Of a stretch of DNA of 64,000 bases, positions 7,484 to 33,439 are shown piece by piece. The notes under the pieces are model-generated. The model was not told the DNA's origin, did no database searches, and worked only from the letters and a program-made list of their open reading frames with translations. Position numbers and translations under genes: made by a program. Positions within the stretch are counted from its first letter, which is position 1. Each line of letters starts with the position of its first letter. Origin of the DNA: an uncultured Acidimicrobiia bacterium (GTDB lineage Bacteria > Actinomycetota > Acidimicrobiia > Spongiisociales > DATADW01); assembly GCA_963826825.1 (NCBI GenBank), contig CAWGYV010000016.1:414771-478770 (forward strand), given 5' to 3'.

Positions 7484-8754
7484 TCAGACGTGATGACTCA
7501 GACCTGACCGCTCAGCTACCACGTCGAGCGCTCGCAGGTAGAACCGCTCCACCCTCGCCGCCACCTCGTCGGCGTCGTACACGCTTGCCACCTCGTGGCG
7601 GGCGGCTGCGCCAAGCCGGTTCCGCTCCGCCGGGTCGGCGAAGAGTCGCGTCACCATCGCCGCGATCGCCGCCGGATCCTCTGCGGGAACGAGCACCCCG
7701 GTCTTGCCGTCGTCCACCACATCGCTCATCGGACGCCGGTCGGTGGTCACGACGGGGAGCGCCCGGCCCATCGCCTGGAGCAGCGAGACACCCAGACCCT
7801 CGAACAGCGAGGGGAAGACGAACACGTCGGCGGCGCCCAACAAGCCGGGGCACATCGGAACGCCGATCGAGGAGCATGACCCGGTCGGCGAGACCGAGTT
7901 GTTCGATGAGGGACTCCACCATCGGGCTGGATGCCCCGGGCCGACCCGCCACCAGGAGCACGGCGCCCGGAACCTGCTCCAAGATCGCCGGCATCGCCTC
8001 GATCAGGTAGCGGTGTCCCTTCTGAGGCTCGACCCGGCCCACGGCGAGCACGACGAAGGCATCGTCGGCCAAGCCCAGCTCGGAGAGGATCGATCGCCTC
8101 GCCTCGTCGCGGGAGCCGCCGGCGTCGAGCTCGGCCAGGTCGATCCCCCGCGGGATGACATCGATCCGTTCGGGGCGCAGCCCGACGACGCTCTGCCACG
8201 ACTCGGCAACCGCCGGGGTGAGCGCCTGGAAGCGCCTCACTGTTCTCATCGTGATCCGATCGAGCAGCCGGTGACCCTCCAGCTTGAGCTTGGTCACCCC
8301 CGGGTTGTCGGTCACCCGCACCGGCTCGTGGCTTATGTTGACCAGGCTCTCCACCACCGGGATTCGACGCCGGGCTCCGACCAGCCGGGCGGCCAGCCCG
8401 GCGTTGGCCAGCGAACCGTGGATCAGGTGGGGCCGGATCTCGGCGACCGCCCGGTCGAAGGTCCGCACCAGGTCCCAGCGGCCCGACGGCCGGGCGTCGC
8501 CCTGGTAGAGGAGGTGTATCGGCACCGTTCTCGGGCACTTCGTCGCTCCGGCTCCCGACTGTGTCCTCGTAGACCACGGCCAGGGCGTGACGGAGGCGCG
8601 GGTCGGTGAACCGGCGCAGGTTGGCGACGAGCTGCTGTTCAGCGCCGCCAACCGTGCCGAGCGAGTCGATCACGTGCAGTACGAGCCGGGGACATCGGGC
8701 GGCGAGGGTAACCCGGGGGATGTCCGCCGCGAGCCCGTCGAGGTCGCTTGACAC
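7484..8754 (-). CDS. Glycosyltransferase family 4 / group 1 (frame breaks ~8530 and ~7850)
   Basis: The N-terminus reads RLVLHVIDSLGTVGGAEQQ. The middle reads VLAVGRVEPQKGHRYLIEAM...LLVAGRPG. The C-terminus reads LLGAADVFVFPSLFEGLGVSLLQAMGRALPVVTTD (the EX7E region). The three parts lie in three frames. Confidence 0.85.
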
Positions 8755-8780
8755 CGGTCCGTCCTACCATCGCTCCGCCA

Positions 8781-9576
8781 ATGCGCTGGAAGTCCGCTCG
8801 TCCACTGCTCACAGCCGGGCTTGTCCTGGCGCTGGTGGCGTGCAGCGGTGGGGGCGCGGGCCCCACCGAGTTCAACCAGGCCGACGGACCGTCCCCGGGA
8901 CTCCATCACCCGGCCAAGCAGGCCGTCGACGACGCTGCCCACCAGGCCCTCGAGGACGACGGTTCCCTCGGCGACGCCAACCACCGCGGGCGGCCCGACC
9001 CCAACGGCGCCCGTCGGTGAGCCCACCGACGTAGACGGCCTGGTCGGTTTTGTGGGGTGCTCGATGACCGAGAACGCGGTGGACGGCTACGCCGCGCTGG
9101 GCGGAGACAAGTTCTGGCCCAGGTTCGGTCGCTACGGCGGGGGCACGGTGGGACGCTGGGCGTTCGGCGCCGAGGCCGGCAGCCGTCTGTGGGCCATTTT
9201 CCGCGGCCAGTTGAGGGATCAGCCCGACACCGCCGCCATCTGGTGGCAGCTGTGCACCTTCGCCGGAGGTGCTCAGGACGACCTCGACCGGGCGCTCGCC
9301 GTGCTCGAGGAGATCAAGGCCTCGGCGCCGGGCCTCCCCATCTACGTCTCACCCCAGCCTTCCTACACCGACGGCCACGTGTGCGAGATCGCGGGCGACG
9401 GCGGGCCTGAGCGCATGGCGCAGTTGGCCGCAGACGTGGTCGCAACCGGCGAGGTCATGGCTGGTCCTCCTCAAGGCCCTCTGCCCTCCGACGTGACCCG
9501 CGACGGTTGTCATGCCGATACCGCCGGCCAGGAGATCCTCGGTGAACAGCTCGAGGCGTTCTTCGACGCAGGATGA
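8781..9576 (+). CDS. Lipoprotein with SGNH-like C-terminal domain (one frame break ~8850-8950)
   Basis: A signal peptide plus lipobox (MRWKSARPLLTAGLVLALVAC-SGG) is followed by a Pro/Thr linker. Then come a block-I-like GFVGCSMTEN and a block-V-like RDGCHADTAGQ. The domain is homologous to the C-terminal domain of the 17329..18497 protein. Confidence 0.6.
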
Positions 9577-9721
9577 CGGGCGAATCTGTGCTCAGGAGGG
9601 TGGGGACTGCCGCCGATATACTCATCTGCTGGGTTGATCGTCGGCGCGACGCGCCGTGACCCCGTCCCGGCCGGCGATCTAGTCGCCGAGTGCCACCATC
9701 GTGAGCAGGGAGACCCCAACA

Positions 9722-10728
9722 ATGGCCGATGTCCCAGTCGGCGAGATACTCGTGTCCGTCGAGGACGTCTCCAAGGTGTATATCCCCTCGCCCACCTGGC
9801 TCCGGGTACTCATCCGTTCCTCGAGCAAGGAGGCGGTGACCGCGCTCGACCGGGTCAACCTGAAGGTCGGTGCAGGCGAGATATGCGCTGTCGTCGGCCC
9901 CAATGGCGCAGGCAAGTCGACCCTCTTCCGCATCCTCACCGGTCTCACCACCCCGAGCAGGGGCCGTGCATTGGTGGGCGGGCTCGACGCCACCCGCCAG
10001 TCGTCGCGGGTACGGCGGATTGTCGGCTTCATGCCCGCCGACGACCGCTCGCTCTACCTCCGCAACACCTGCGTCGAGAACTTGAGGTTCCACGGGCGTC
10101 TCCAGGGGATGGACTCCGGCGATATCGAGCGACCGGATCGACGAGGTCCTCGAGATGGTGGATCTGAGCTACGCCCGCGACCGTGTCGGCTTCGCCCTCT
10201 CCTCGGGGATGCGAGCCCGTCTCCAGTTGGCGCGTGCCCTCCTCCACCGGCCCCGGGTCCTGATCCTCGACGAGCCGACCTCATCGGTCGATCCGGTCGC
10301 CGCCTACGGGTTGGTCCAGCTGATCAAGCGGGTGGCAGAGGAGGGCAAGGTCGCCGTTCTCATCAGCTCGCACCGGCTGGAGGAGGTCGAGGAACTCCAT
10401 GACAACGTGGCCATGCTCAACAAGGGTCGGATCATCTACTGGGGCGACCTGGACGTGATGCGATCCAAGTGGGAGGAGTCGACGGTCGAGATCGAGTTCG
10501 TCACCGAGGCCATGGCGACCGAGGCCAGCATCCGGCTCGCTGCCATGGAAGGTCTGGAGCTCATCGAGTTGGATGGCACCCAGTTGACGGTGGCCACGCG
10601 CCGCCCCCACCGGAGCGCTGCTCGCCAGGCTCGACGGCCAGGTAGATGGGATCGTTTCCCTCCGTCACACCAAGATGCCGCTGCTCCGTCTCTTCAGCAA
10701 GATCGTCGCGGACGAGGTGACGGAATGA
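9722..10728 (+). CDS. ABC transporter ATP-binding protein, DrrA/ABC-2 type (frame breaks ~10125 and ~10605)
   Basis: Walker A is GPNGAGKST, the signature is LSSGMRARLQLARAL and Walker B is VLILDEPTSSVD. ATG 9722 is preceded by AGGGAG; the ORF track starts at GTG 9701. The stop overlaps the permease start (ATGA). Confidence 0.88.
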
Positions 10729-11562
10729 GCGCTCTCGCCACCGTCGGGGTCAGCACGCGCCGCGCCGCCGGCATCTCCGGGGCCTTCTTCCGGATGGGGT
10801 GGAACTACTCCACCAACTACCCACTCGGTTTCTGGCTCGGCCAGGTCAGCCAGTTGCTCCCGGTGGTGATCTTCTACTTCATCTCCCAGCTCAACGTGAA
10901 CTCACCGGCCGTCGGAGGCGACTACTACACCTTCGTCGTGCTCGGCTTCGTGGGGATGATGATCATGGCCCCGGGAGTCAACGGGCTGAGCTTCGAGCTA
11001 GAGGCGGCGATGCTCCACGGCCACTGGGAGATGCTCCTGGTGGAGCCGGTCCCCTGGCGACTCCTGCCTTTCACCATGGTTGTCTGGCCCACCGGTCTCC
11101 GGCTTCTCCTCATCATGGTGATGGTCGTCCTCTCGACCGTGCTCGGTGCGGTCTACGACCCATCGGGGCTCGGTGTGGCGATGCTCATCCTGCGTGCTCG
11201 GTCTCGGCACCGGGCTGGCCATCGGTGTGCTCTCCGCCAGCATCAAGGTGCTGGCCAAGAAGGGCGATCCGGTGCTCACGCTCTACATGCTCGCCACGCA
11301 GGTGCTGTCCGGGCAGTTCTTCAACATCGAGGCGCTACCCACGCCGCTCCGGATCCTGGCCTATGCCATCCCCCAGACCTACGTCAACCAGGGGCTGCGC
11401 AAGGCATTGATGCCGTCGGGTGACATCATCCCCGGATTCGGGATCCCCGAGTCGCTCATCGCCCTGGCCGCGTTCAACCTGCTGCTGCTCCCGGTGGCGA
11501 TATGGCTGTTCGGACGGTCGATGGAGTACGGGCGGTCGATCGGCGTCCTCAGCGGGTACTGA
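10725..11562 (+). CDS. ABC-2 type transporter permease (frame break ~11190)
   Basis: MSALATVGVSTRRAAGISGAFFRMGWNYSTNYPLGFWLGQVSQLLPVVIFYF begins a multi-TM protein. It continues in ORF 11146..11562 (GLGTGLAIGVLSASIKVLAK...LLLLPVAIWLF). Confidence 0.8.
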
Positions 11563-11565
11563 TCC

Positions 11566-12742
11566 TCACGAACTGAGTTCTCGCTCCAGAGGCGTCCGAA
11601 ACGCGACGTCACGCGCAAGGCTCCGAGGACGCCAGCGACCCGCTCGGCCTCGCAGGCCCACCGCCTCGGCGCCCTCAGTCGGGACATCCTCCAGAAACCG
11701 GATGGCGATCTCGCCATCCTTGCGTTGCGCCCATCCCCCCACGACCCGCCCCTCCCACCAGATCGTTGGGCCGGCGTTGCCGTTCCGGTCGAACAACTGT
11801 GGGCGATGATCGCCCAGGTACCAGGACCGCTCCGACCAGCCCATGATGGTGGAGTCGAGGGCGGGGAGAAGCGCCGCCCACGGTTCGACCTCGGCCACCT
11901 GGTCGGCGTCGTCGGCGAGCACCACACCGGTTCCGGTGTCGAGTGCCACCTCGACCAGTTGCAGCCCGGCGAGGGCGGCAGTGGTCTGTCGGGCCGTCCA
12001 CCCCGTCCACCAGGTGAGGTCGCTGACCGGTGCCGGACCGAAGGCGGCGAGCCAGCGGCGGGCAAGCTCGGTCCTCGCCTCGTCCACGGCAATCTCGGGG
12101 ATGCCCCCGGGCACCCAGGTTTCGCTCGGCGCCCATCGATAGAGGGTGCTCAACCATGTCCCCTTGGGGCGACCCCTCACGATCCGGCCGTCGGCCCCGA
12201 GAAGGAACAGGACCTGGGTGGACATCCCGATCTTCCCCGCGTAGTTCTTCCCCTGGTTGACCTCGACCTGCACTCTCAACTCGGGCACATCCGAGGACAG
12301 CTCGGCCGCGGTCGCCTCACCCCGGGCGGAGAGGGCCTCGAGTGTCGCCTCTTCGACACGGGCCAGCCACGCCCCTGGGTCGTCCCCCACGCCGGCCTGG
12401 GCGACCAGTTGGACGATGCGGCGCCGTTGCTTGACCGCGATATCGGCGGTGACCGCCGACTGGATCACTCCAGCCAGATCCGCTGGGTACCACGAACACG
12501 GTGCGGCGCATCCCGAGTAGCCGCACAAGCGAGCGGTCCTCGTAGAGAGCCCTCTCCAGCGCCGAAACGTCCGGCGGGTTCATCCGGGCGGTCGCACCGA
12601 GGAGCACCGTTGCCGGGTCGGTGGCGTGGAGCCCGACGAGAGCAGCGGCGACCGCAACCGGGTCGTCGGTTCTCTTGGCGAGCAGGTGCCGTCTCGCCAG
12701 CCGGGCGCGCCGCTGCTCCACGGTGATGCGGAGGGTGGTCAC
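11566..12742 (-). CDS. Winged-helix AlkZ/YcaQ-like (HTH_42) protein, putative DNA glycosylase (frame break ~12490)
   Basis: The N-terminus is VTTLRITVEQRRARLARRHLL...LVGLHATDPATVLLGATAR. The C-terminal part carries FGPAPVSDLTWWTGW and GNAGPTIWWEGRVVGGW. The GTG start overlaps the stop of the upstream hydrolase (GTGA). Confidence 0.7.
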
Positions 12743-13593
12743 AGCCTCCGGCGCACTATCGCGGTGATCAGTTCTATCGCGGTTTGCTGCGCCTCGAGCG
12801 AGCGGAAGCTGCTCAGATCGCCCCGCTCGGTGACCGCCACCTCGATCCCGGGTCGAGAGCGCTCCAGGTAGTCCCCGAGCGGACCCTGGCGGAGTGACTC
12901 GAACGAAACGAGTTCGAGGTCGTCCGCTCCGAAGACGAGATCGACGGTGACCCCTCGATCGCGAAGCTCGCCCATATCCGCTCGGAACGACCCCGGGGTG
13001 AGGCTGATGTCGCGCGCTTTGGGGCCGGCCGGGGCGGGGCGGAGTCGCCGTGTGGCCCACCTCGCCGCCGGCCGCCACAACTCGGGGTTGGTGGCGACGT
13101 TGGCCACACCCCGCCATCCCATCTTGCGGGCCCTCCAGTCGGCCTTGGTCTGCTCGGCGGGGAAGGGGAAGGAGACAAGCACCAGCCCGGAAAGGTTCTC
13201 CAACTGCGACGCCGCCGCCAGCGCCGATCGTCCGCCGAAACAGACACCGATCACTAGAAGCCGGTCGGCGGCCCCACTCAGCGTGTCGCACACCGCCACC
13301 ACATCGCCGACAAAGGGCCGGTCGAGCACGAAACGGTCGATCTCACCGCTGCTGTCTCCGACACCATGCCAGTCGAACCTGACGACGGTGTGCCCGAGAG
13401 CGGCTATCTCCCTCGCCAGCCTCACCACGACACGGTTGCGGTTGGTCGAGGTCCCGTACCAACCGCCCGGGCAGATCACCACTCCGGTGCCGGTGGGCAT
13501 CTCGGGTCTCGTGACCACCGCCGCCAGGGCACCCTCGGGACCATCGACGAACATCGCCTGCTCGTTGGCGATGATGCCGTCACCATGCGCCAT
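12739..13593 (-). CDS. Alpha/beta-hydrolase-fold protein with a Cys at the nucleophile elbow
   Basis: Intact, 284 aa. It carries VVICPGGWYG, RFDWHGVGDSSG and the elbow LLVIGVCFGGRSAL (G-x-C-x-G rather than G-x-S-x-G). Confidence 0.7.
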   Translation of the reverse strand: MAHGDGIIANEQAMFVDGPEGALAAVVTRPEMPTGTGVVICPGGWYGTSTNRNRVVVRLAREIAALGHTVVRFDWHGVGDSSGEIDRFVLDRPFVGDVVAVCDTLSGAADRLLVIGVCFGGRSALAAASQLENLSGLVLVSFPFPAEQTKADWRARKMGWRGVANVATNPELWRPAARWATRRLRPAPAGPKARDISLTPGSFRADMGELRDRGVTVDLVFGADDLELVSFESLRQGPLGDYLERSRPGIEVAVTERGDLSSFRSLEAQQTAIELITAIVRRRL

Positions 13594-14458
13594 CCCCGAG
13601 CAGGAACCCGAGGGTGAGGGTCACCGCCTCGGTGGCGGTCACCTCGACCTCGAGACGACCACCCTTGCCCGCCGACCCGAACCACCAGGACTCGGCAGCC
13701 GCCACCGTGTCGATCCGCACATCCGCTCCGTCGCCGCGCCATTGCTCGGCGAGGTCGAGGACGGCCGGACGCGGAGTCCCCTTGCGTGACATCTCCACGA
13801 TCTGGATCCGCCTGGCCACGTTCTCGACCCCCGACAACGGTTGCGACCTCGCCTCGTCGAGCAGCGTCCTGTCGACCGGATAGCCGACAACGTCCACCGG
13901 CCCATCGTCGGCCTGGTTCTCATCCTTGACGGATTCACCCGAGGCGAGTTCGGACAGCCTCCGGGCCCGCATCACCTCTTTTTCGTACGTCGCGCCGTCC
14001 ACCACCGGGTCCCAGAGAACCAGCGTCCCTCCGGCAGGGATGGTCCGAGCCGCCACCACTGCGGCCAGCCGGGTCCCGACGAGGGCAACCGGGAGGTCGC
14101 CGAACTGGGCGAGAAGCGCCCCCATGGCGTTGGAGGCGTCGGCCGACATCGAGGTCGAGCGTGAACGGGCCGTCTCCGAACTCTGCCCACTCCCGATGGG
14201 GTGAAATCGCATCGCAGCCACCCCACCTTCGGCCAGACCGGCGGCGAGTTGGTACTCGCGCCGGTAGTTGCGGGGTCCCTCGGCAAGGGGAGGCGGGCAG
14301 ATCAGGGCGACCCCTCTGGGCTCGCCGGTGGGGCCGTGCACCGCGGCGAACAGATCGCCGGTCGCCGTCTCGATGAAGCCGACCCGAACCCAGGCCCCGT
14401 CGGGTCTCTCGATACGATCGGGTGCTACCGATTTCCAGACATGATCGGAGTTCGCCAT
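13580..14458 (-). CDS. Alpha/beta-hydrolase-fold protein lacking an obvious Ser nucleophile
   Basis: The likely start is MANSDHVWKS at 14458. It carries VALICPPPLAEG, and the elbow position reads VALVGTRLAAVVAA. It overlaps the next hydrolase by 14 nt. Confidence 0.6.
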   Translation of the reverse strand: MANSDHVWKSVAPDRIERPDGAWVRVGFIETATGDLFAAVHGPTGEPRGVALICPPPLAEGPRNYRREYQLAAGLAEGGVAAMRFHPIGSGQSSETARSRSTSMSADASNAMGALLAQFGDLPVALVGTRLAAVVAARTIPAGGTLVLWDPVVDGATYEKEVMRARRLSELASGESVKDENQADDGPVDVVGYPVDRTLLDEARSQPLSGVENVARRIQIVEMSRKGTPRPAVLDLAEQWRGDGADVRIDTVAAAESWWFGSAGKGGRLEVEVTATEAVTLTLGFLLGDGAW

Positions 14459-14498
14459 GTCCAGAGGGTGGTCATCACCCCCTGAGGAGATGGTCACG

Positions 14499-14772
14499 TC
14501 AGCCCGGCTGCCGCCGGGTCTCGACCAGCCGGGCGATGGCTCCAACGGATTCGAAGTTGGCCACGGCCAGATCCTCGTCGGCGACCTCGATGTCGAATTC
14601 CTCCTCGATGAACGCCACCATCTGCTGGATTCCCATCGAGTCGAGGATCTCGGCCTCGAACAGAGATACGTCGTCGGTCAGCTCCTCGGAGGACCCCTCC
14701 CAGCCGAGGTCCTCGACGATGAAGGCTCGGATCGCGTCGGCGGTGCTCATCGACGACGTCATGGCTGCTGCT
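14499..14772 (-). CDS. Acyl carrier protein (standalone)
   Basis: MTSSMSTADAIRAFIVEDLGWEGSSEELTDDVSLFEAEILDSMGIQQMVAFIEEEFDIEV carries the phosphopantetheine Ser motif (L-D-S-M-G). The ORF-track N-terminal extension to 15311 is rejected. Confidence 0.8.
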
Positions 14773-14987
14773 GCTCTCCCAGATGGCTGCGCGGGCATGG
14801 TACCGCCTCGCAGACCGCAGGCCTCTTGTCCATGGTGGTTGCCGGTAATGGGTAAGGTGCCTTGCCCGCTCTCAAGCTTCTGGCTCTTACCGCCGATTAT
14901 GGCAACTAGGTCACACCGAGCCTGCCGCAATCGGTTCGGGCGGTGCCTTTGAGGGGCGGTCCAAAGATCAATGAGTGGTTTTAGATC

Positions 14988-15227
14988 ATGAGCGATGTCG
15001 GTGATGAGATCCTTCGGTTCGTCCAGTCCGAATTGTCGGACGGTTCGTTTCCGGTCGGCGTTGAGACCGACCTCCTGCAAGAGGAGATAATCGACTCGCT
15101 CGGGGTGTTCACCCTGATCGGGTTTCTCGAGCAGCGGTTCGGCGTCAAGATCGATGCGTCCGAGGTGGACCTGGACAACTTCCGCAACGTGACCGCCGTC
15201 GAGCAGTTGGTGGAGCGGTCGCGATGA
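14988..15227 (+). CDS. Acyl carrier protein (standalone), divergent from the first ACP
   Basis: Intact, 79 aa. LQEEIIDSLGVFTLIGFLEQRFGVKID carries the D-S-L-G motif. Confidence 0.85.
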   Translation: MSDVGDEILRFVQSELSDGSFPVGVETDLLQEEIIDSLGVFTLIGFLEQRFGVKIDASEVDLDNFRNVTAVEQLVERSR

Positions 15228-15865
15228 GCGAAGGCGAGATCCTCGGCGGCATGGACCCATTCCGGATCGCGGTGGCACAGGCCCCCGACACCGCCGCCGC
15301 CCTGCTCCCACCCGACGCTGCCGACCGTCTCACCGACCGGATCTACCGTCTGAGGGGATCGGCCCCCACGGTCGAAGTGGTGACGGTTCCCGACGTCGCT
15401 CTCGACCGCCTCGATCCCGCCGCCCTCATCGGGAGCGGCGCCCACGCCGTGATCCTCTCCGTCGCATCGGAGATCGATACCCCGGCGACAGAATTCGCCG
15501 CAGCCGCCGACCGCATCATCACGGCTGTCCGCAACGAGGACGGACCGCATCTCGCCTGGTTCACCGCCTCGACCGTCGAACCGGAAGGGGGCGATGCCTA
15601 CCGCACCCGACCCGAACGCTTCGCCCTCCGGGCGCTGCGGCTCGACGCCGAATTGGTCAGGCTTTCCAAGACTCGGGGGGTGGCGCTCATCGACGCCGAC
15701 CGGATCGTGGCGGAACTCGGTGGAGCCGACCATGTCGTGGCACCGCTCCACTACTCGCTGGCCGCTTCCGAGGCGCTTGCCGAGGAGACGGTGCGCGTGC
15801 TCGACGACATCGGGTTCTTCGAACCGCGCCCTCTGGTCGCCCAGATCGGCGCCGCTGGAGGCTGA
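15224..15865 (+). CDS. Hypothetical protein, paralog of the C-terminal half of the 16279..17316 protein (SGNH-like?)
   Basis: Intact, 213 aa, overlapping the ACP stop by 4 nt. AHAVILSVASEID...GVALIDADRIVAELGGADHVVAPLHYS aligns by eye with TVVVLSIAADLS...ASVVDVDRVLKLEGVKEQIDFAHFP. Confidence 0.5.
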   Translation: MSEGEILGGMDPFRIAVAQAPDTAAALLPPDAADRLTDRIYRLRGSAPTVEVVTVPDVALDRLDPAALIGSGAHAVILSVASEIDTPATEFAAAADRIITAVRNEDGPHLAWFTASTVEPEGGDAYRTRPERFALRALRLDAELVRLSKTRGVALIDADRIVAELGGADHVVAPLHYSLAASEALAEETVRVLDDIGFFEPRPLVAQIGAAGG

Positions 15866-15866
15866 G

Positions 15867-16268
15867 ATGCGCTACGACCTGAACCTTCCTCATCTCGACC
15901 GCAGAGTCGGACAAGCGCGACTTCTGGAGTGGCACGTCGCCGAAGGCTCCGAGGTCGGCTACGGGGACCCCCTGGTCGACATCCAAGCCGATGAGCTCAC
16001 CACGCTCGAGGTTCACCGTTCGGCCAAGTACCTGACCAAGCTGGCGGGACGCAAGGTGGCAACCGGAACCAAGACCACCCGGGTGAGTCTGGTGTGGCGG
16101 CTGGTTTCATCCGACCGCGGGGTGGTACGCCATCTGGTGGCAGCACCGGGCGACATGATCGAAATCGGTGACTCGCTCGCCGTGCTCACCACCACTACCG
16201 ATGAGGATCCCGCCGCGGGGCCCTCAGGGAAGTTCCGCGTGGTAACCGAGCCGGTGGCCCAATCGTGA
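15867..16268 (+). CDS. Biotinyl/lipoyl-like domain protein lacking the modifiable Lys
   Basis: MRYDLNLPHLDRRVGQARLLEWHVAEGSEVGYGDPLVDIQADELTTLEV...VAAPGDMIEIGDSLAVL. The position of the E-T-D-K motif reads Q-A-D-E. GGAG lies upstream of ATG 15867. Confidence 0.55.
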   Translation: MRYDLNLPHLDRRVGQARLLEWHVAEGSEVGYGDPLVDIQADELTTLEVHRSAKYLTKLAGRKVATGTKTTRVSLVWRLVSSDRGVVRHLVAAPGDMIEIGDSLAVLTTTTDEDPAAGPSGKFRVVTEPVAQS

Positions 16269-16278
16269 GGAGAGCTAG

Positions 16279-17316
16279 ATGAGCGCCGTGGCGCGCAACG
16301 TGCAGCGGCTTGTCCGCAAGATCGCCGGTGAGAACTCGGCGATCGAGCGCCGGCTACGCGGCACATACCGGCAGGCAGCGCTTCGCAACGAGGCCGGCGA
16401 TGACTCGAAGACCGAGCGTGCGATGCGCGGCGTGGTCTCCAGCGCACGGTTCCGCCTCCGCGGCGAGCTCACCACCCGCAGCGCCACCGTCTTCCGCCGA
16501 GGCAAGAGCGAAAACCGGTTGGGCATCTACATGCTCGGTGCCTGTGACCTTCCCACCGTCTTCGCAGCAAAGCCCTTCATCGAGCAAGACCTCAACGGGG
16601 TGTGCGCCATCATGCGCGACGGTGAGGTGGCAGATGCTCGTTCGGATTTTCTGCTCCAGGCACTCGACGGTGTAGACCCGGCTGCGGTCGCCGAGGCCGG
16701 TCAGTATCTCAAGCTGCCGCCCGATGCCTTCGAGCCGCGCCTGTTCAGACCCGAGTTCCGCATCCCGGCGGTTCCGTCTCTCGGCAGCTTCCCCAAGACC
16801 GTGGTGGTTCTGTCCATCGCCGCCGACCTGAGCCGCAGCCTGTACCGCAACAACGAGCACGGCTACCTGGTGGACCCGGGGGGTTGGTGGTTGACCACGC
16901 CGATGGGAGAGGTGATGGAGCACCTCGACAGGGTGGCGTGGATGAGGGAGAACTTCACCGCCATGGGCAAGATCCCCGTCGAGGAATTCCATCACAACAT
17001 GGGCCGGATCGTCACCGAGGTCAAGCAGCGAACCGGGGCGCATGTCGTGGTTTTCAACACCCTGACCGTGAGCCCGGGCGACCTGACCCACACCTACCAG
17101 TTCGTCAGAATCCCCCAGAACCTGAGACGTATCGAGTTCGACCTGGCCCTGGCCGACATCGCAGCCCAACACGACGCATCGGTGGTGGATGTCGACCGTG
17201 TGCTCAAGCTCGAGGGTGTCAAGGAGCAGATCGACTTCGCCCACTTCCCCATGGACCGGATGATCCCAATCGCCCGCGAGTTCCACCGCGTGCTGCGCGA
17301 TAGGGAGATCATCTGA
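16279..17316 (+). CDS. Hypothetical protein (345 aa), SGNH-like C-terminal region
   Basis: The ORF is intact. It has a D-x-x-H-like motif near the C-terminus (IDFAHFP). I recognise no family with confidence. Confidence 0.5.
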   Translation: MSAVARNVQRLVRKIAGENSAIERRLRGTYRQAALRNEAGDDSKTERAMRGVVSSARFRLRGELTTRSATVFRRGKSENRLGIYMLGACDLPTVFAAKPFIEQDLNGVCAIMRDGEVADARSDFLLQALDGVDPAAVAEAGQYLKLPPDAFEPRLFRPEFRIPAVPSLGSFPKTVVVLSIAADLSRSLYRNNEHGYLVDPGGWWLTTPMGEVMEHLDRVAWMRENFTAMGKIPVEEFHHNMGRIVTEVKQRTGAHVVVFNTLTVSPGDLTHTYQFVRIPQNLRRIEFDLALADIAAQHDASVVDVDRVLKLEGVKEQIDFAHFPMDRMIPIAREFHRVLRDREII

Positions 17317-17328
17317 GAGGTAGGGCGG

Positions 17329-18481
17329 TCAGTCGGTGTAGAAGCGGGCGATCTCCTCACCGATCGGTCCAACTGCCGCCTCGGTGAGGTGGCCCAGGTC
17401 GTCTCTGTAGTCAGCGCAGCTACGCACCTCGGGCGAGGCGCCCTTTTCGACGCCAACCGTGAGTTCGATCGCCTGGTCGATGATCGGATGGTTGACCGAG
17501 GCCCTGACACTCTCCCTGCGGTCCCCCGGACATAGCTGCTCGTCGGGACCGCCGACGATTGGCTGAAGCACGATTGCCGCGCCGGGGTACTTGACCCTGG
17601 CGGTGGCTACCGCCGACGTGATGTCCTCGACCCACTGCGCCACCGGACGCTCGGCACCCGTCACCGTAAGCAACAGCCGGCTCGGGGTCCCGTCCGAGCA
17701 CCCGATACGACCTGATTGCTCCAACCGACGAAACCCGGATCGGCCCATTTCTCGATCGTTGCTCCCGACTCCCAGAGGAGGTCCCACCCGGCGTCGCCTG
17801 CCACCGGCTCGAAGCCACCGCCGGTGAACCACTGCTCGGTCTGACTGAACCCGACCACCCTGGTGCAGGAGAAGGGGCCTGTTGCCGACAAGCCGAGCGC
17901 CCGGGCCAGGAAGCTCGCCATCTGGTCGCGCCTCACCGCCTGTTCCGGGCAGAAACGGATCCCGGACTCGTCGCACCCGGCGGTGATTGCTGCTGCGGCG
18001 ATGGAGTTGATGGCCTCCTCGTGAACGCTCTCCTCGTCGTCCACGAAGATGTCGGCGCTCGAAGCGGGGAATGCAAAGCCCCGCACCAAGAGACTTGCCA
18101 TCTGCGCCCTACTGAGCGCCTCAGACGGGCAGAAGCGCGTTCCGGCCGGGTTGCAGCCGATGGTGATGCCCGCCTGGGCAATGGCGTTGATCGCCTCCTC
18201 GTGAACGCTCTCCTCGTCGTCACCAAAAGCATCGGTCCCGGATATGGGGAGGTCAAGCGCTCGCTGCAGGAAGCTCGCCATCTGCCCCCTGGTCACCGCG
18301 CGGCCGGGGCAATAGAGGTTCGTGCTGCAGCCAACGGTGATGCCTTCGGCGGCGATCGCCTCGATGGCCGCCTCGTGGACATTGCCATCGTCGTCATCAA
18401 AGGTCCCCGCTGCTGTCGCCGGCGCGGCGGGGATCAACCAAACCGTAACCGCCAGGATGGCGGCGCCGGCCAGGCGGATCC

Positions 18482-18497
<16 letters not shown>
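17329..18497 (-). CDS. Secreted protein with 3 SLH repeats plus an SGNH-like C-terminal domain (frame break ~17705)
   Basis: A signal peptide (MRQPVRIRLAGAAILAVTVWLIPAAPATAAG) is followed by three copies of F.DD....H..AI.A.A..GIT.GC......FCP...V.R.QMASFL.RA. The C-terminal domain (VVGFSQTEQW...DDLGHLTEAA) continues in ORF 17329..17976. Confidence 0.8.
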
Positions 18498-20259
<1,762 letters not shown>

Positions 20260-20278
<19 letters not shown>

Positions 20279-20904
20279 TCGAGCGCCCGGACCAGGAATG
20301 AGGCCATCTGTCCCCTGGTCACCGGCTCATTTGGGCAAAAGCTGGTGCCGCCGCATCCCTGGGTGATCCCCGCTTCGGCCAGCGCGTTGATCTCCGCCTG
20401 GAACGTGCTGGTGCCGTCATCGGTGAAACGGTCGGGGCCGGGGGGGAGGTCCAGAGTTCGGGCGAGGAAGGCTGCCATCTGCCCGCGGGTCACCGAACTG
20501 TCGGGGCAGTAGGAGGATCCGCTGCCGCACCCGGTGGTGATCCCCACCGATGCGATCGAGTTGATCGAATCCTCGTGGGTGTTCCCCGAGTCGTCCCCGA
20601 AGTAGTCGAACTCGGCGTCGGGGGTGACGAACGATCGGGCGAGGAACGACGCCATCTGTGCCCTGGTCACCGGCTCCTCCGGGCAGAACAGTGTCCCTGC
20701 GTCGTTGCAACCCTTGGTGATCCCCCATTGGGCGAGGGCGACGATCGAGTCGGCGTGCACCGATCCTGCGATGTCGACGAACGGCTGGGGCTGCTGGGCG
20801 AGGGCCGGTGAGGGCGCCATCGTCATCGAGGTGACTGCGGACAGCGTCAGCCAGAGCACCCAACAACGCGGCCGCCTGGCTAGGCCCCTTCGGGATGTGG
20901 TCAC
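20260..20904 (-). CDS. Secreted protein consisting of 3 SLH repeats
   Basis: Intact, 214 aa, with a signal peptide ending ALAQQ. The three repeats include FVDIAGSVHADSIVALAQWGITKGCNDAGTLFCPEEPVTRAQMASFLARSF. The stop overlaps the beta-helix gene start by 19 nt. Confidence 0.85.
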
Positions 20905-21030: not shown

Positions 21031-22257
21031 TCACACCGATACCACCTCAGGGTCGAGACCCATCTCTGTGAGCTGATTCGTGATCTCCTCTTGGTAGATC
21101 TGGTTCATCAGTACCACCAGGTCGGGCTTGAGCTCGATGAGACTCTCGGGGGCGAGCACCTCGTGGCCGGTCCCGGGGAGGAACATCCCCTGCTTGTAGG
21201 GGTTGATGTCTACCACTGCCGACACGCTGTCGCCGAGGCCGATTGTGGTGAGGAAGGCGACCGCCTTGGACCCGCCACCCCAGATGGCGACACGCTCGCC
21301 GCGTTCGGCCGAACCCTCTAGCCGTTGGCGCCAGCTCTCGATGTGGCGGTTGGCGCCGGAGGCGAAGGCGAGCACCATCTCGCCGACTTCGTCGGGTGAC
21401 TCCTCGACCGGCAGCGGATCGACTGATCCGCCGATGACCGAGTCGGCCAGCAGGTACTGGTCACCGAACCCGAGTGCGATATCGGTGACGGTGAACCCCG
21501 CTTCCCTGAGGGCTCGCCCCAGCGAGCCGGGTGTGTAGTACGAGCAGTGCTCGTAGTAGATGTCCCAGAAGGCGAACTCCCTCAAGACCCGTCCCGTGTC
21601 GGGGACCTCGGTGAACATCGCTGCTCCGTCGGTTGCCTCCACGGACCGTCGCAGCAGCCTGAAGAAGTCGCCGACCGGGGCGATGTGCTCCATGGTGTGG
21701 CGGGTGATGACCAGGTCGCCGGTCAGCGGGGTGTGCTCCTCACCGTAGAAAGCGCGGATCAGCTCAACCGAGCCATCGCCCGCTTCCCCAACCGGCGGCC
21801 TCCCGAATCCTGGGTCGATCCCAATGCCCCGGCCGATGCCGAGCTCGGCCAGGAGCATCAAGAAGTCCCCCTTGCCGCTCCCCACCTCGAGCACGGTCCG
21901 CCCTTCGAGGCCGTACCTCTCGACGAGATCGCCGGCGAGTCGGCGGGCGAAGTTGGTGAACAGCGGCGAGAAGGCCTGCGACTCCTCGGTGGGCTGTCCG
22001 TAGTCCACCTTGTCGGGCTCGAAGCAGATGTTGGTGATGAACCCGCAACGGGGGCACAGCCCGAGCACAAGATCGCCGATGGGGTAGGCAGACGCCGACG
22101 GTTGGTCGGGCAGCAACACACAGCTTTGTGTCGGGATCTCCCCCGCGGCGAAGAAGGAGAGCAGCCCGGTGGCGCCGCAACTCGGGCAGGTAGCTGAGGC
22201 ACCGAGATCGAGTAGGTCGTCGCCCACCAGAGGGCGCAGGTCGGTCGGGCCGATCAC
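21031..22257 (-). CDS. Class I SAM-dependent methyltransferase with N-terminal Zn-ribbon and C-methyltransferase C-terminal domain (NDP-hexose C-methyltransferase-like)
   Basis: The GTG start overlaps the upstream stop (GTGA). It carries CPSCGATG...CPRCGF, the SAM motif VLEVGSGKGDFL and the C-terminal domain VAIWGGGSKAVAFL. In the ORF track it is fused to the next gene as one 829-aa ORF. Confidence 0.8.
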   Translation of the reverse strand: MIGPTDLRPLVGDDLLDLGASATCPSCGATGLLSFFAAGEIPTQSCVLLPDQPSASAYPIGDLVLGLCPRCGFITNICFEPDKVDYGQPTEESQAFSPLFTNFARRLAGDLVERYGLEGRTVLEVGSGKGDFLMLLAELGIGRGIGIDPGFGRPPVGEAGDGSVELIRAFYGEEHTPLTGDLVITRHTMEHIAPVGDFFRLLRRSVEATDGAAMFTEVPDTGRVLREFAFWDIYYEHCSYYTPGSLGRALREAGFTVTDIALGFGDQYLLADSVIGGSVDPLPVEESPDEVGEMVLAFASGANRHIESWRQRLEGSAERGERVAIWGGGSKAVAFLTTIGLGDSVSAVVDINPYKQGMFLPGTGHEVLAPESLIELKPDLVVLMNQIYQEEITNQLTEMGLDPEVVSV

Positions 22258-23520
22258 AGGATGGTGGGTTGCGGCACAGGGACGATGAAACGCCCGCCCC
22301 TTGCGGCGTACTCCGCTTGCTGGCGCATGATCTCGTCCCTGAAGTTCCAGGCGAGTATCAGCAGATAGTCGGGCGGGTCGTCGAGAAGCCGCTCCGGGGA
22401 AAAGATGGGCAGCCGCACTCCTGGCATATGCAGTCCGTGTTTGTGGTCGTTCCGATCCACAACGTAATTCGAGGTACTCCGCCGCCCCGGTGTAGTTGAG
22501 AAGCGTGGCGCCCTTGGCCGCGGCGCCGTAGGCAGCGATTTTTGCCCCCTCGGAGGTGAGCCTGGAGAGGAGGTCGATCAGGTCCTGGCGGACCTGTTCG
22601 ACCCGATCGGAGAAGGCGGCGTAGTACGCAGCCTCTGTGAGCCCGATCCTTCGCTCCTCCTCGAGGTACTCCTCCACCGACGGCTCGGCTTCGGCCACCG
22701 CCGAGAAGGTCACACGGAGCGACCCACCGTGGATGGGGAAGTGCCTCACCCGGATCAAATCGAGTCCGTGTCTGCCAAAGAGAGCGGCGAGCGCGGTGAC
22801 GGAGAAAATGCAGTGGTGCTCGTGATAGATGGTGTCGAACTCGCAGTTATCCACCATGTCGCGCACGTAGGGGACCTCGATCTCGACCCTCCCCTCGGGG
22901 GCGAGGATCGTCGCGATGCCGGCGACGAACCGGTTCTGGTCGGGGACATGGGCGAGGACGTTGTTGCCCAGGACCACATCCGCCCTCACTCCGTCCGCCA
23001 GCAATCGATGCGCCAACTCGGGCGTGAAGAAGTCCCTGATCGTGGGGATGCCCCTCTGCTCGGCAGCGGCTGCAGGACCGGGCGCCGGGTCGATCCCGAG
23101 GACGGGCACCCCGGCCTTGAGGAACCATTGGAGCAGGTAGCCGTCATTGCTGGCCAGCTCCACCACCAGGTTGTGGTCGCCAAGGCCGAGCTCGTCGACC
23201 AATCCTTCGGCATGGGTCCGGGAGTGCTCCAGCACCTGATCGGAGAAGGAGGAAAAGTAGGGATAGTCCTCGTCGAAAAGCACGGTGGGTGGCACTGTCT
23301 CCTTGATCTGGACGAGCGAGCACCGCGGGCAAAACACCACGGTGAGCGGATAGTGGTGCTCGTCGGCGGCGGGGAGACCCGGTGCCACCAGCTCGTCGGC
23401 CAGCGGGACCATCCCGAGATCCAGCACGGGGACCAGATCGGTCGCCCCGCAGCTGCGGCACCCGGCTATTACCTCATGCACAGGTACATCATGCACGGGC
23501 ACATCATGCACGGGCATCAC
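22254..23520 (-). CDS. Class I SAM-dependent methyltransferase with Zn-ribbon, paralog of the previous gene (frame break ~22465)
   Basis: It carries CRSCGATD...CPRCSLVQ, VVELASNDGYLL and AAYGAAAKGATLLNY. The C-terminus (VVDRNDHKHGLHMPGVRLPIFSPERL...FIVPVPQPTIL) lies in ORF 22254..22460. Confidence 0.8.
23471..23515 (-). repeat. 3 x 15-bp tandem repeat encoding (VHDVP)-type pentapeptides at the methyltransferase 5' end
   Basis: The units acctcatgcacaggt / acatcatgcacgggc / acatcatgcacgggc give the protein N-terminus MMPVHDVPVHDVPVHEV. Confidence 0.9.
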
Positions 23521-29768: not shown

Positions 29769-31077
29769 TTACCGGAGATCCTTGCGGTGGTCGGTGAAGC
29801 GGCGTGCCTTGAGGTCGAACCGGGGAAGCGTCCCCATCGGAACCGTCGTGGCCAGCGGCCGGACTCCGATCCCGGTGTGGATCTCGCGGGCTACGGCGGC
29901 GGCGAGGGCGTCGGGATCACCCGTGGTGACCTCGATGCGCAGCTCCATCACGTCGAGCTCTTCCTTGCGGTAGACGTCGACAGCGAACTCGCCGATCTCG
30001 GGGAAGCGCCGCACCAGGTTCTCCACTGCGCTGGGGAAGATGTTGACGCCGCGCACGATGAGCACGTCGTCGACCCTCCCGGTGACACCACCCTCGAAGC
30101 GCATGAAGGTCCTGCCGTCCTCGCTGGGTTCGGAGGCGACGACCACATGGTCGCCGGTGCGGTAGCGGATCACCGGGAACCCGGGGCGACCCAGGTTGGT
30201 GATGATCAGCTCGCCGTCGTTCGACTCCTCACCGGTGGCGGGATCGATCACCTCGGCGAGGAACTCCGCCTCGTTGACGAACAGCCCGTTCTGGAGTTGT
30301 GACTCGAAGCCCCAGGCACCGACCTCGGTTGCGCCGGCATGGTCGTAGGCCCGTGCCCCCCACGCCTCTTCGATCCTCGCCCGGGTCGCCGGGATCCCTG
30401 CCCCGGGCTCGCCGGCGTGGATGGCCACTCGCACACCCGAGTTGGCGATGTCGATCCCCTCCTCGGCTGCCACCTCGGCGAGGTGGAGGGCGTAGGTGGG
30501 GGTGCACACCAGCACCGAGATGTCGTTGACCAGGATCGCCTTGAGCCGCTGCAGCGACGACATCCCACCGCCGGGGAAGGCGAGGGCGCCGATGAGACGG
30601 GCACCTTCATAGGCGCTCCAGAAACCGATGAACGGCCCGAACGAGAAGGCGAAGAAGATGCGGTCCATCGAGGTGACACCGGCACTGCGGTACACCTGCG
30701 ACCAGCAGCGGGCCCACCACCGCCAGCTGTCCTCGGTGTCGAGGCAGCGCAGCGGCTCACCCGTGGTACCGGACGTCTGATGGATCCGGGTGTACCGGGT
30801 GCGGGCATAGGTGAGGTTGGTCCCGTATGGCGGATTGGAGATCTGGTCGGTGGCCAGTTCCTGCTTGGTGGTGAACGGGATCTTCTTCAGGTCGTCCATG
30901 GTGCGGACGTCGTCGGAGCTGCGAATGCCGGCACGACCCAGCTTGCCCCGGTAGAAGGCGTTGCCGTCGAGCACCTCGTCCAGCAGAAGCTGAAAGCGGC
31001 GCAAGCTGGACCTCCTGCAAGGCGTTGCGGCCCAGCGTCTCGGCGAACCCGGTCGAAAACTCGAACTCCATCGTCAT
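29769..31077 (-). CDS. Adenylate-forming enzyme of the phenylacetate-CoA ligase / CapK / F390-synthetase-like family (frame break ~31004)
   Basis: It carries IHQTSGTTGEPLR, DHAGATEVG, RYRTGD and VDDVLIVRGVNIFP. An extra N-terminal 24 aa (MTMEFEFSTGFAETLGRNALQEVQ) lies in the adjacent frame, with GGAGGG upstream. Confidence 0.82.
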
Positions 31078-31103
31078 CCCTCCATGTCTCCTTGACCCCG
31101 CCC

Positions 31104-31716
31104 TCAATCGAGCGACGGAGCGGGGTCCACCCCCACTGGAAACTTCTCGTTTATCAGCATGAACGGCAGCCCATCGTGGACCACCCGGTAGGTGCGGGCG
31201 ATGAACTCGCCCAGCCCTCCGAGCCCTTCGGGCGGAACGGCATTGCGCTCCCGCCCGTACCAGAGGATGTCGCGCCTCGTCTCGAGACCGGCATCGTTCA
31301 TGATCCTGCCGAGCCCACCGGGGTGGGTGGCCAGTTCATCCTGGACGCTGCTCGGAAGCCGCTCGGCGACCAGGAGCGAGGCGGCGTGGGCGAACACGAC
31401 ACCACGCAATGTGCCTCGTGAGCAGCACCTCGCGGGCGATCACCCTTGTCCCGGCGGGAGCCTCGAGCCATTCGTGGTCGGCAGGGAGGACCAACTCCTC
31501 CTGCGACAACCGCTCGACCACGACCGGCTCCATGGTGAAGGCCTCGATGAACTTCGTCACCGTGCCGTCGATCACCAGCAGCGACCGGTAGAAGGGGCTC
31601 AACGCCCTGAAATTGACCGGCTGAAGCGTCTCCGGCCGGGCGAACTGGGCGACGAACACCTCGGCGGCGGGATCGAACCCGGCGGTGGTGCCGACAGCGG
31701 AGCTTTGGTGACCCAT
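31104..31716 (-). CDS. Chorismate pyruvate-lyase family protein (DUF98, Rv2949c-like; frame break ~31400)
   Basis: LLVIDGTVTKFIEAFTMEPVVVERL, VFAHAASLLVAERLP and FIARTYRVVHDGLPFMLINEKF align by eye with my memory of the mycobacterial chorismate pyruvate-lyase. Confidence 0.65.
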
Positions 31717-31717
31717 C

Positions 31718-33435: not shown

Positions 33436-33439
33436 CTCG

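Follow-up and report, generated by a model that had tools for sequence, protein, structure and literature searches.

Two Candidate Carrier-Dependent, Thiol-Based Acyl-Transfer Modules in a Surface-Glycan Cluster of an Uncultured Acidimicrobiia Bacterium

Gene Content and Conservation of the Cassette

The window analyzed here is a stretch of 64,000 nucleotides (G+C ~66-70%) from contig CAWGYV010000016.1 of an uncultured Acidimicrobiia bacterium, and it harbors a cassette of seven genes arranged in two divergent operons. Two small carrier proteins, PCP1 and PCP2 (earlier named ACP1 and ACP2), open the operons, with PCP1 followed on the minus strand by a pair of alpha/beta-hydrolase-fold proteins (hyd2R and hyd1C), and PCP2 followed on the plus strand by a triad made up of p213, a lipoyl-like protein and p345. 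The seven open reading frames (ORFs) had been assigned to these strands by the initial annotation, and an ORF check found every one of them present and intact, as listed below.

hyd1C, 12739..13593, minus strand: 284 aa, alpha/beta-hydrolase fold, Cys118 in the elbow GVCFGG; putative acyl-S-enzyme transferase.
hyd2R, 13580..14458, minus strand: 292 aa, alpha/beta-hydrolase fold, Arg130 in the elbow; putative non-catalytic or carrier-docking partner of hyd1C.
PCP1, 14499..14798, minus strand: carrier of 99 aa (ATG at 14798) or 87 aa (ATG at 14762), first gene of the minus-strand operon.
Divergent intergenic region, 14799..14987, common to both operons: 189 bp, or 225 bp with the PCP1 start at 14762.
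PCP2, 14988..15227, plus strand: carrier of 79 aa, first gene of the plus-strand operon.
p213, 15224..15865, plus strand: degenerate SGNH-like paralogue of p345; putative non-catalytic subunit.
Lipoyl-like protein, 15867..16268, plus strand: 133 aa, barrel-sandwich domain without a modifiable Lys; putative adaptor between p213 and p345.
p345, 16279..17316, plus strand: three N-terminal helices and an SGNH-fold domain with Cys89; putative thiol acyltransferase that would receive its acyl group from PCP2.

The genes are tightly packed. The plus-strand junctions, described at first as overlapping or at most 10 nt apart, consist of a 4-nt overlap between PCP2 and p213 (15224-15227), a gap of 1 nt between p213 and the lipoyl-like gene (15865/15867) and a gap of 10 nt before p345 (16268/16279), and on the minus strand the stop of hyd2R overlaps the start of hyd1C by 14 nt. 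The spacer between the operons had been given as 215 bp and measures 189 or 225 bp, because PCP1 starts at 14798 or 14762. Judging from the layout alone, it is presumed to be a bidirectional promoter region; a search of the spacer for the sigma-70 consensus returned no match, and its inverted repeats are short and imperfect, with no strong repeat among them.

The same seven-gene order was observed in six related contigs of metagenome-assembled genomes (MAGs), with amino-acid identities ranging from 71 to 98%, and the proteins of the window are 92-97% identical to those of Danish soil MAGs labelled Actinomycetes or Acidimicrobiia. Comparison with two relatives gave dN/dS values of 0.06-0.23 for all seven genes, indicating purifying selection, with 0.06-0.13 in the putative catalysts (hyd1C, 0.11-0.13; p345, 0.06-0.07) and 0.16-0.23 in the putative dead partners (p213, 0.16-0.21), which are the two fastest evolving genes of the cassette. 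Since the arrangement recurs in six related contigs under such constraint, it is not a product of chance. A sequence scan detected no hydrophobic segments or signal peptides in any cassette protein, and all of them are predicted to be cytoplasmic.

Carrier Proteins PCP1 and PCP2

The range first assigned to PCP1, 14499..14772, comprises 274 nt and is out of frame, and its translation matches nothing, which accounts for the blank result of the first scans of this protein; the correct ORF runs from one of the two ATG codons listed above to 14499. Read in frame, PCP1 passes the Pfam PP-binding model (PF00550) with 30.5 bits against a cut-off of 20.8, and PCP2 passes it with 24.5 bits. The initial reading of both as carriers is thereby borne out, and the Ser of the DSxG attachment motif of such proteins is present in each, within 'ILDSMG' in PCP1 and 'IIDSLG' in PCP2, giving the joint motif (I/L)DS(M/L)G. 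The two carriers share 33% identity with each other (E 6e-11).

The best matches of PCP1 in the PDB were PltL, CcbZ, 6cxt_A, PigG and DltC, and those of PCP2 were 2my5, 6cxt_A, PigG, DltC and PltL, so that by sequence both carriers appear to resemble best the stand-alone prolyl, pyrrolyl or aminoacyl carriers (PltL, PigG, DltC, CcbZ). This link to enzymes of the thiotemplated-pyrrole type was missed in the earlier reading. A match to the OlsH/OlsI ornithine-lipid carrier was dropped, as it was traced to a GH3-type pathway unrelated to the locus. Each carrier also has its own counterparts among the loci of homologues in other genomes (designated by L numbers): PCP1 shares 42-49% identity with the carriers located ahead of hyd2-hyd1 in L050 and L052, and PCP2 shares 45% identity with the carrier ahead of the p213 homologue in L054.

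The Hydrolase Pair hyd2R and hyd1C

Two atypical nucleophile elbows had been reported for this pair, VGTRLAA without Ser in hyd2R and GVCFGG with Cys in place of Ser in hyd1C, and alignment with hidden Markov models (HMMs) places both on the nucleophile site. In hyd1C, whose elbow context reads '...LLVIGVCFGGRS...', the Cys falls on the nucleophile Ser of 2fuk and 3trd ('GFSFGA'), and in hyd2R ('...ALVGTRLAAVV...') alignment of the family profile to solved structures puts the Arg on the Ser of 9pic ('LGFSLGG'). The AlphaFold2 (AF2) model of hyd2R, with a mean predicted local distance difference test score (pLDDT) of 89.2, has a complete alpha/beta-hydrolase fold in which R130 lies at the elbow between strand 124-129 and helix 131-139, and Foldseek aligned it to feruloyl esterases and monoglyceride lipases with TM scores of 0.6-0.73. 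Neither protein carries a canonical Ser-Asp-His triad, with hyd1C having Cys118 and a Ser at the His site, and hyd2R having Arg130 and no conserved His.

The initial annotation likened the pair to the hydrolases of exosortase-A (PEP-CTERM) systems. The best NCBIfam model of hyd2R is indeed TIGR03101 (hydr2_PEP; 80.2 bits, E 1.8e-22, model positions 2-246 of 266), and that of hyd1C is TIGR03100 (hydr1_PEP; 57.7 bits, E 1.1e-15, model positions 3-153 of 274 only), which agrees with a common superfamily and a similar cassette logic. The scores nevertheless stay far under the equivalog cut-offs of 202.75 and 168.45 bits, respectively, so hyd2R and hyd1C are not members of the exosortase-A families themselves. 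In Pfam, hyd1C matched Abhydrolase_1/6, and hyd2R gave no match.

The unusual elbows are also a property of the families at large, as had been suspected. An exhaustive search with the hyd2 profile over clusters at 50% identity yielded 17,282 representative clusters at E <= 1e-3, of which 2,555 remained at E <= 1e-30. Elbow conservation was assessed on relatives scoring below the TIGR03100 and TIGR03101 cut-offs: the 38 distant hyd2 relatives sampled, all of which (38/38) have TIGR03101 as their best match and lie under its cut-off, show a G-x-R-x-G elbow with a near-invariant Arg, retain 'LWDPVxDG' and have no conserved His, while Cys118 within GxCxG is invariant and D225 near-invariant in 24 relatives of hyd1C down to 30% identity. 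Natural fusions of hyd2(Arg) to hyd1(Cys) were also found, 535-594 aa in length, with the N-terminal half reaching up to 142 bits against TIGR03101 and the C-terminal half up to 134 bits against TIGR03100. In addition, there are natural adenylation-carrier-hyd2 fusions in which hyd2 occupies the slot usually taken by the release domain. Taken with the elbows and the family matches, these fusions suggest that hyd2R and hyd1C probably work together as a pair on carrier-bound substrates.

The Triad of p213, Lipoyl-Like Protein and p345

More than 120 homologues of p345 were found, with 36-56% identity, in Acidimicrobiia, Chloroflexota and other MAGs. Across 38 sequences, G82, G87, C89 (in 'GxCDLP'), the stretch 'VDPGGWWL' and D319 are invariant, and H322 is near-invariant. 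In the AF2 model (pLDDT 89.0), C89 follows the first core strand (80-86) and precedes the first core helix (91-102), and the DxxH motif stands before the last helix. The Foldseek search of the PDB returned SGNH/GDSL proteins as the top 11 and as most of the top 20 matches, with probability 1.0, a best E value of 1.5e-5 and TM scores relative to the target of 0.46-0.63 (E ~1e-5), and these matches include the acyltransferases MsAcT and, lower down, PatB. Only a faint match to the Pfam model Lipase_GDSL_2 was obtained, at 17.9 bits under a gathering score of 32.9. The protein has no block-I Ser (GDS) and instead carries the invariant Cys89 between strand 1 and helix 1. From the AF2 model, the Foldseek matches, and the invariant C89 and DxxH, p345 looks like an SGNH-fold enzyme in which Cys replaces the block-I Ser, in keeping with its first description as SGNH-like, and D319-x-x-H322 is the putative catalytic dyad partner of Cys89.

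The kinship of p213 with p345 was confirmed by BLASTP (E 6e-9, 29% identity over 114 aa). It is not confined to the C-terminal half of p345, as first thought, given that p213 homologues elsewhere align to residues 83-341, that is, to the whole SGNH-like domain. Pro stands at the Cys position of p213 ('AQAPD') and the DxxH is missing, and the p213 family alignments likewise revealed no conserved nucleophile residue and no DxxH.

The third member of the triad had been called lipoyl-like, and it passes Pfam Biotin_lipoyl (PF00364) with 27.8 bits against 22.1, matched in two stretches with a basic insertion present. What had escaped notice is that the modifiable Lys is absent: the hairpin tip has Glu in its place ('IQADELTTLEV'), and no Lys is conserved there in ~40 orthologues. 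For this reason, a role of the 133-aa protein as a lipoylated or biotinylated swinging arm was ruled out. Of the 42 triad loci, 37 have a p213 homologue, in every case immediately upstream. In many loci p213 and the lipoyl-like domain are fused into one protein, and in P0091 the lipoyl-like domain is fused with p345. Owing to the fixed order and the fusions, p213, the lipoyl-like protein and p345 are best regarded as parts of a single enzyme. The module is also prone to duplication, with a fourth paralogue of the p345/p213 family directly after p345, or a second full triad, in L013, L015, L016, L023, L025-L028, L034 and L045, the second full triad copies being those of L016, L034 and L045.

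Occurrence and Partners in Other Genomes

Exact-sequence look-ups of window proteins gave no match, and the genome context was therefore drawn from the loci of homologues in other genomes. With one genome taken per GTDB species, the triad was recovered in the same order at 46 loci, and its neighbors were counted within 10 kb of 42 non-redundant triad loci, as follows.

Sulfotransferase: 25 of 42 loci.
GT4 glycosyltransferase: 13 of 42 loci.
Amino-acid adenylation enzyme: 11 of 42 loci.
Acyl-CoA-dehydrogenase-like protein (ProDH): 10 of 42 loci.
Carrier protein: 9 of 42 loci.
FAD halogenase-like gene: 6 of 42 loci.
p251 homologue: 5 of 42 loci.
Hydrolase pair: 4 of 42 loci.

The gene set had been regarded as a single conserved unit, which the last of these counts contradicts, as both modules occur within 10 kb in only four of the 42 non-redundant lineages; the hydrolase module and the triad are two separable modules. 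Adenylation (A) domains or dehydrogenases are present in L012-L015, L017, L019, L020, L025, L027, L046, L052 and L054. The partner A domain passes the amino-acid adenylation model, with TIGR03098 (the exosortase-A ligase) as the second- or third-best family at 326-333 bits. The partner dehydrogenase scored 440-446 bits against PigA and 412-424 bits against RedW, the L-prolyl-carrier dehydrogenase, in both cases under the cut-off (500 and 650 bits, respectively).

Three loci connect the modules to these loaders most directly. L054 contains a single operon with a deacetylase, GT4/GNAT, a priming transferase, a dehydratase, a DegT aminotransferase, a PCP2-type carrier, p213, a fused lipoyl-p345, ProDH and an A domain. 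In L052, a phosphopantetheinyl transferase (PPTase, ACPS) precedes ProDH, a PCP1-type carrier, an A domain, hyd2 and hyd1; next come a pyruvyl transferase, three GT4 genes and a beta-helix protein. L050 harbors the series carrier-hyd2-hyd1-A. Each of the two modules therefore has a carrier type of its own and an independent tie to the same loaders and to glycan genes.

Other loci depart from this pattern. In two loci from Chloroflexota, L020 (131-8637) and L011 (4064-8641), two or three CmlS-like FAD halogenase-like genes, two carriers and a membrane Acyl_transf_3 protein were located upstream of the triad, L020 additionally holding a dehydrogenase and an A domain. In Chloroflexota, the acyl groups may accordingly be halogenated and a membrane acyltransferase may take part. 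In one Acidimicrobiia lineage (L036, L037, L043 and L049, ~8700-10900), a p213-lipoyl fusion and p345 reside in a housekeeping block (ksgA/ispE, glmU/prs, aceK, rplY ... mfd).

Surroundings of the Cassette in the Window

The cassette sits in a surface-glycan cluster that comprises a sulfotransferase and a GT4 at 6.7-8.7 kb, p251, a frameshifted ABC-2 exporter, SLH proteins, a secreted beta-helix protein, a double C-methyltransferase, an epimerase/dehydratase, a nucleotidyl transferase, a second sulfotransferase, a GT2 and an LPXTG protein. Two further features stand close to the cassette.

AlkZ-like gene, 11566..12745, minus strand: Pfam AlkZ-like, 163 bits; its start overlaps or abuts the hyd1C stop; membership in the cassette doubtful.
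p251, 8821..9576, plus strand: family-less protein with the motifs 'GFVGCSMT' and 'DGCHAD'; possible accessory.

The AlkZ-like gene had been placed at the end of the minus-strand operon, and its family assignment holds; in the window the gene is frameshifted near 12,52x, with an intact orthologue in L005. It is absent beside the modules in L010, L034, L047, L050, L052 and L054, and because it is co-transcribed only in the lineage of the window, its membership is doubtful. The protein p251 gave no Pfam or NCBIfam match, and it is listed as a possible accessory because its homologues recur beside the modules elsewhere: L034 and L047 have one next to the hydrolase pair, L042 and L044 next to the triad. 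An ORF upstream of p251 in another frame (8748-9020) encodes a lipoprotein-like signal, 'LLTAGLVLALVACSGGG', which suggests that the two ORFs may form one frameshifted secreted protein.

Several genes around the cassette are split by frameshifts, namely the ABC ATPase and ABC-2 permease (9701-11562), the AlkZ-like gene (11566-12745), an SLH protein (17329-18497) and a FAAL-like ligase (31743-33435). Since the breaks hit different genes in L002, L004, L007 and L046, errors in long-read assembly, and not pseudogenes, appear to be the cause. The C-terminal part of the split SLH protein is a 215-aa ORF, which is fused in L001. A paralogous relationship among p251, this ORF (p215) and the SLH C-termini was considered and dropped, as BLASTP found no similarity among them.

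Downstream of the plus-strand operon, a protein of 598 aa (18482-20278, minus strand) with an N-terminal twin-arginine-like signal peptide and a right-handed beta-helix of the CEMIP type lies between two SLH-domain proteins (17661-18497 and 20260-20904) and carries a run of ~24 Gly near its C-terminus (poly-Pro on the opposite strand). Homologous beta-helix proteins were observed near the triad in L013, L014 and L027, and near the hydrolase pair in L052. The window also holds an ORF of 829 aa (21031-23520, minus strand) with two tandem sugar C-methyltransferase-like units (Methyltransf_13/14/23), and the equivalent region of L001 is called as separate genes; the ORF is either a real fusion or the result of a lost stop codon.

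An AMP-forming ligase had been noted near the cassette. Two such ligases are present, at 29769-31004 and 32185-33435, one FAAL-like and one PaaK-like; they lie 12-16 kb from the cassette and are not of the cognate adenylation type. The minus-strand region 29769-34477 encodes the PaaK-like ligase, a fragment of a chorismate pyruvate-lyase (Rv2949c-like), the FAAL-like acyl-AMP ligase and a DAHP synthase, a set that recalls the supply of p-hydroxybenzoate (FadD22/Rv2949c) for mycobacterial phenolic glycolipids. FAAL enzymes depend on a carrier as acceptor, and in the window no carrier other than PCP1 and PCP2 was found. The genes at 29.7-34.5 kb could supply an aromatic acid, possibly to the cassette.

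Proposed Mechanism and Alternative Readings

We propose, with the balance standing about even for and against, that the cassette encodes two cytoplasmic carrier-dependent, thiol-based acyl-transfer modules that decorate the glycan of the cluster, possibly with a pyrrole-type acid. Module A would consist of PCP1, hyd2R and hyd1C, with hyd2R as a non-catalytic or carrier-docking subunit; hyd1C would accept the acyl group on Cys118 from the phosphopantetheine thioester and pass it to an acceptor. Module B would comprise PCP2, p213, the lipoyl-like protein and p345, with the last three forming one enzyme, in which p345 would take the acyl group from PCP2 onto Cys89, aided by D319/H322, and transfer it to an acceptor, p213 would be a dead paralogue and the Lys-less lipoyl-like domain a structural adaptor. 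The acceptor would most likely be a hydroxyl or amino group on a sugar of the glycan, and its modification would take place in the cytoplasm, ahead of ABC export. The acyl group would most likely be derived from an amino acid and be of the pyrrole-2-carboxyl type, with an adenylation enzyme loading the acid and a PigA/RedW-like dehydrogenase oxidizing it, both of which must here be encoded outside the window. What the analysis shows directly are the gene content, motifs, folds, fusions, conservation, purifying selection and operon partners in other genomes; the acyl-S-Cys intermediates, the subunit complexes and the identities of acyl group and acceptor we infer.

A number of observations weigh against this proposal. 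A carrier gene lies within 10 kb in only nine of the 42 triad loci, and the commonest neighbor of the triad is a sulfotransferase, not a carrier. In L036, L037, L043 and L049, the triad is flanked by rplY and mfd, glycan and carrier genes are lacking, and this placement, free of loader genes as well, is not explained by the current model. As for p345, the SGNH assignment comes from a predicted model with a TM score relative to the query of 0.35; the p345 family profile gave no match among PDB sequences, and hhalign against E. coli TesA (an approximate sequence) was not significant, with a probability of 1.7, so that the placing of 'VVVLSIAADL' on block II and of 'LVDPGG' on block III in that alignment was set aside as evidence. 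The canonical His occurs in only about half of the hyd1C relatives (n = 24), and the clade of the window has Ser there ('GDLSSF'); hyd1C catalysis would in this clade rest on Cys alone. No homologue of the L012-type A domain or of the PigA-like dehydrogenase was found in the 64-kb window, and for want of a cognate loader there the acyl-group identity is extrapolated from other genomes. The literature searched held no experiment on these enzyme families, with TIGR03100/03101 appearing in annotation-level mentions only, and the search for pyrrole-acylated glycans likewise returned annotation-level mentions only.

Possession of two distinct carriers, 33% identical and one per module, under a single divergent control region would also suit a relay, in which the acyl group is built on PCP1, shuttled by hyd2R/hyd1C to PCP2 and delivered from PCP2 to the sugar by the p345 complex, much as aminocoumarin biosynthesis has CouN1 as its second carrier and CouN7 as its final acyltransferase. 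Transfer from carrier to carrier is known from shuttle enzymes (PMC7966384, PMC8748450). An alpha/beta-fold transferase with Cys is an enzyme of this type, and the occurrence of both modules within 10 kb in 4 of 42 lineages compares with ~0.5% per lineage expected, by our own estimate, under random placement in 4 Mb. We nevertheless consider a relay unlikely and favor it less because each module occurs alone elsewhere, together with one carrier, an A domain and ProDH: L052 and L050 have the hydrolase pair only, and L054, L012 and others the triad only, so that each seems able to off-load by itself.

The AlkZ-like gene directly after hyd1C, in the same operon in the window lineage, raises the question of a secondary-metabolite pathway in which this DNA glycosylase confers self-resistance against a DNA-damaging small molecule. 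Genotoxin clusters use homologues of AlkZ for resistance, carriers of the PltL/PigG type, PigA-like dehydrogenases and halogenases are typical of natural-product pathways, and in L003 the hydrolase pair adjoins a giant polyketide synthase/nonribosomal peptide synthetase (PKS/NRPS) and a PPTase. The gene is, however, absent beside the modules in every other lineage, the window contains no condensation, ketosynthase or thioesterase genes, and the neighbors are overwhelmingly glycan genes (sulfotransferases, GT4, deacetylase, sugar dehydratase, aminotransferase, ABC-2 exporters), which makes a small-molecule product quite unlikely.

The alpha/beta and SGNH folds are esterase folds, and type II thioesterases accompany carrier proteins (PMC8748450); the enzymes could accordingly be read as hydrolases or editing enzymes, either proofreaders like type II thioesterases or glycan esterases, instead of transferases. 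Such a role sits badly with the loss of both nucleophile and His in hyd2R, with Cys for Ser in hyd1C and p345 and the missing His of hyd1C, and with the predicted cytoplasmic location of all the proteins; two dedicated carriers and dead paralogues kept under selection are also hard to explain by it, and we regard it as very unlikely. Finally, a decaying, non-functional remnant that has lost its loaders and the hyd1C His would agree with the lack of an A domain or ProDH in the window and with the frameshifted genes nearby, and is highly improbable given seven intact ORFs kept in six related MAGs at dN/dS 0.06-0.23, frameshifts that differ between contigs and look like long-read errors, and loaders that may lie elsewhere in the genome.

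The proposal of two acyl-transfer modules can be extended, as a bolder claim that we hold to be doubtful, to uncultured Acidimicrobiia and some Chloroflexota and Gemmatimonadota, which would esterify or amidate sulfated surface glycans with thiotemplated, sometimes halogenated acids of the pyrrole-2-carboxyl type, using two hitherto unrecognized thiol-dependent off-loading enzymes, a Cys-SGNH triad enzyme and a Cys-/Arg-elbow alpha/beta heterodimer, the latter also explaining hydrolases 1 and 2 of exosortase-A loci. If the proposal is true, natural-product chemistry (carrier-bound amino-acid-derived acids, dehydrogenase, halogenase) would decorate envelope polysaccharides in abundant uncultured soil actinobacteria, and two new off-loading solutions would be at hand, a Cys SGNH enzyme with a pseudo-enzyme and a lipoyl-like adaptor, and a Cys/Arg-elbow alpha/beta pair. 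The hyd2 family, with its 2,555 clusters at E <= 1e-30, includes the unexplained hydrolase 1/2 genes of PEP-CTERM/exosortase-A exopolysaccharide loci, and since it is large and includes those genes, the mechanism would carry over to the floc and biofilm polysaccharide systems of Proteobacteria. The residues C118, R130, C89, D319 and H322 make the proposal directly testable.

Comparison with Known Systems

The exosortase-A cassette, composed of TIGR03100, TIGR03101, the ligase TIGR03098 and an ACP, consists of catalogued and uncharacterized families. The present locus is like it in the best NCBIfam matches of hyd2R and hyd1C, in the adjacent position of the pair, in the carrier of the operon and in the polysaccharide context, and the partner ligase adjacent to the pair in L050 and L052 is TIGR03098-like. 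The Proteobacterial exosortase-A set has a PLP decarboxylase. A member of a Burkholderia exopolysaccharide cluster, Bcam1334, is annotated as TIGR03100 (PMC3584217). The locus differs from the exosortase-A cassette in its scores of 80 and 58 bits against cut-offs of 203 and 168, in its Acidimicrobiia-like host and in the PigA-like dehydrogenase of related loci, and no PEP-CTERM setting was seen, nor any exosortase domain among the ~45 window ORFs scanned with Pfam.

Among carrier-to-carrier shuttles, SyrC and CmaE use an active-site Cys. With these enzymes and CysB, hyd1C shares the alpha/beta fold, the invariant Cys of GxCxG and the company of two stand-alone carriers, a likeness of features; it differs from them in its obligatory Arg-elbow partner, in the missing His of its clade and in belonging to a glycan cluster, not to an NRPS line. 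CmaE, SyrC and CysB shuttle acyl or aminoacyl groups between carriers (PMC8748450, PMC7966384).

The fold of p345 and its C-terminal DxxH are like those of SGNH/GDSL enzymes such as PatB, MsAcT and the sialate O-acetylesterases. Unlike them, p345 has Cys for the block-I Ser, a long insertion and three extra N-terminal helices, is paired with a dead paralogue and a lipoyl-like domain, and shows no sequence-level match to solved structures. The literature searched likewise contained no characterization of these hydrolases or of the triad.

The Dlt system of teichoic-acid D-alanylation (DltA, DltC, the MBOAT protein DltB and DltD) offers a parallel in the weak similarity of the carrier to DltC, in an SGNH-like final enzyme and in an envelope polymer as target, and the adenylating enzyme of related loci has strong similarity to the DltA family. 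Differences lie in the predicted cytoplasmic location of the proteins, in Cys for the Ser nucleophile and in the extra dead-paralogue and lipoyl-like subunits; a Dlt-like system was discarded, as no MBOAT was recognized in a crude motif scan and all the proteins look cytoplasmic.

Finally, the pyrrole systems CouN1/CouN7 (CloN1/CloN7), PltF/PltL/PltE, PigI/PigG/PigA and RedM/RedO/RedW are matched by the PltL/PigG-like carriers and by the related loci with an A domain, a PigA/RedW-like dehydrogenase and halogenase-like genes. Of the thiotemplated pyrrole trio (A domain, carrier and prolyl-carrier dehydrogenase), the window has the carriers only, and unlike in these systems there are no loaders in the window, the off-loading families are different and the presumed acceptor is a polymer; the dehydrogenase of related loci also stays below the cut-offs of PigA (446 vs 500) and RedW (424 vs 650). 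CouN7, a hydrolase-fold acyltransferase, moves the pyrrole acid from a carrier to a sugar (PMC8748450), and it is this carrier-to-sugar logic that the modules would share. Carrier-dependent acylation of envelope polymers and sugars is known from Dlt and CouN, and the enzymes described here, with the function that we infer for them, would be undescribed variants of it.

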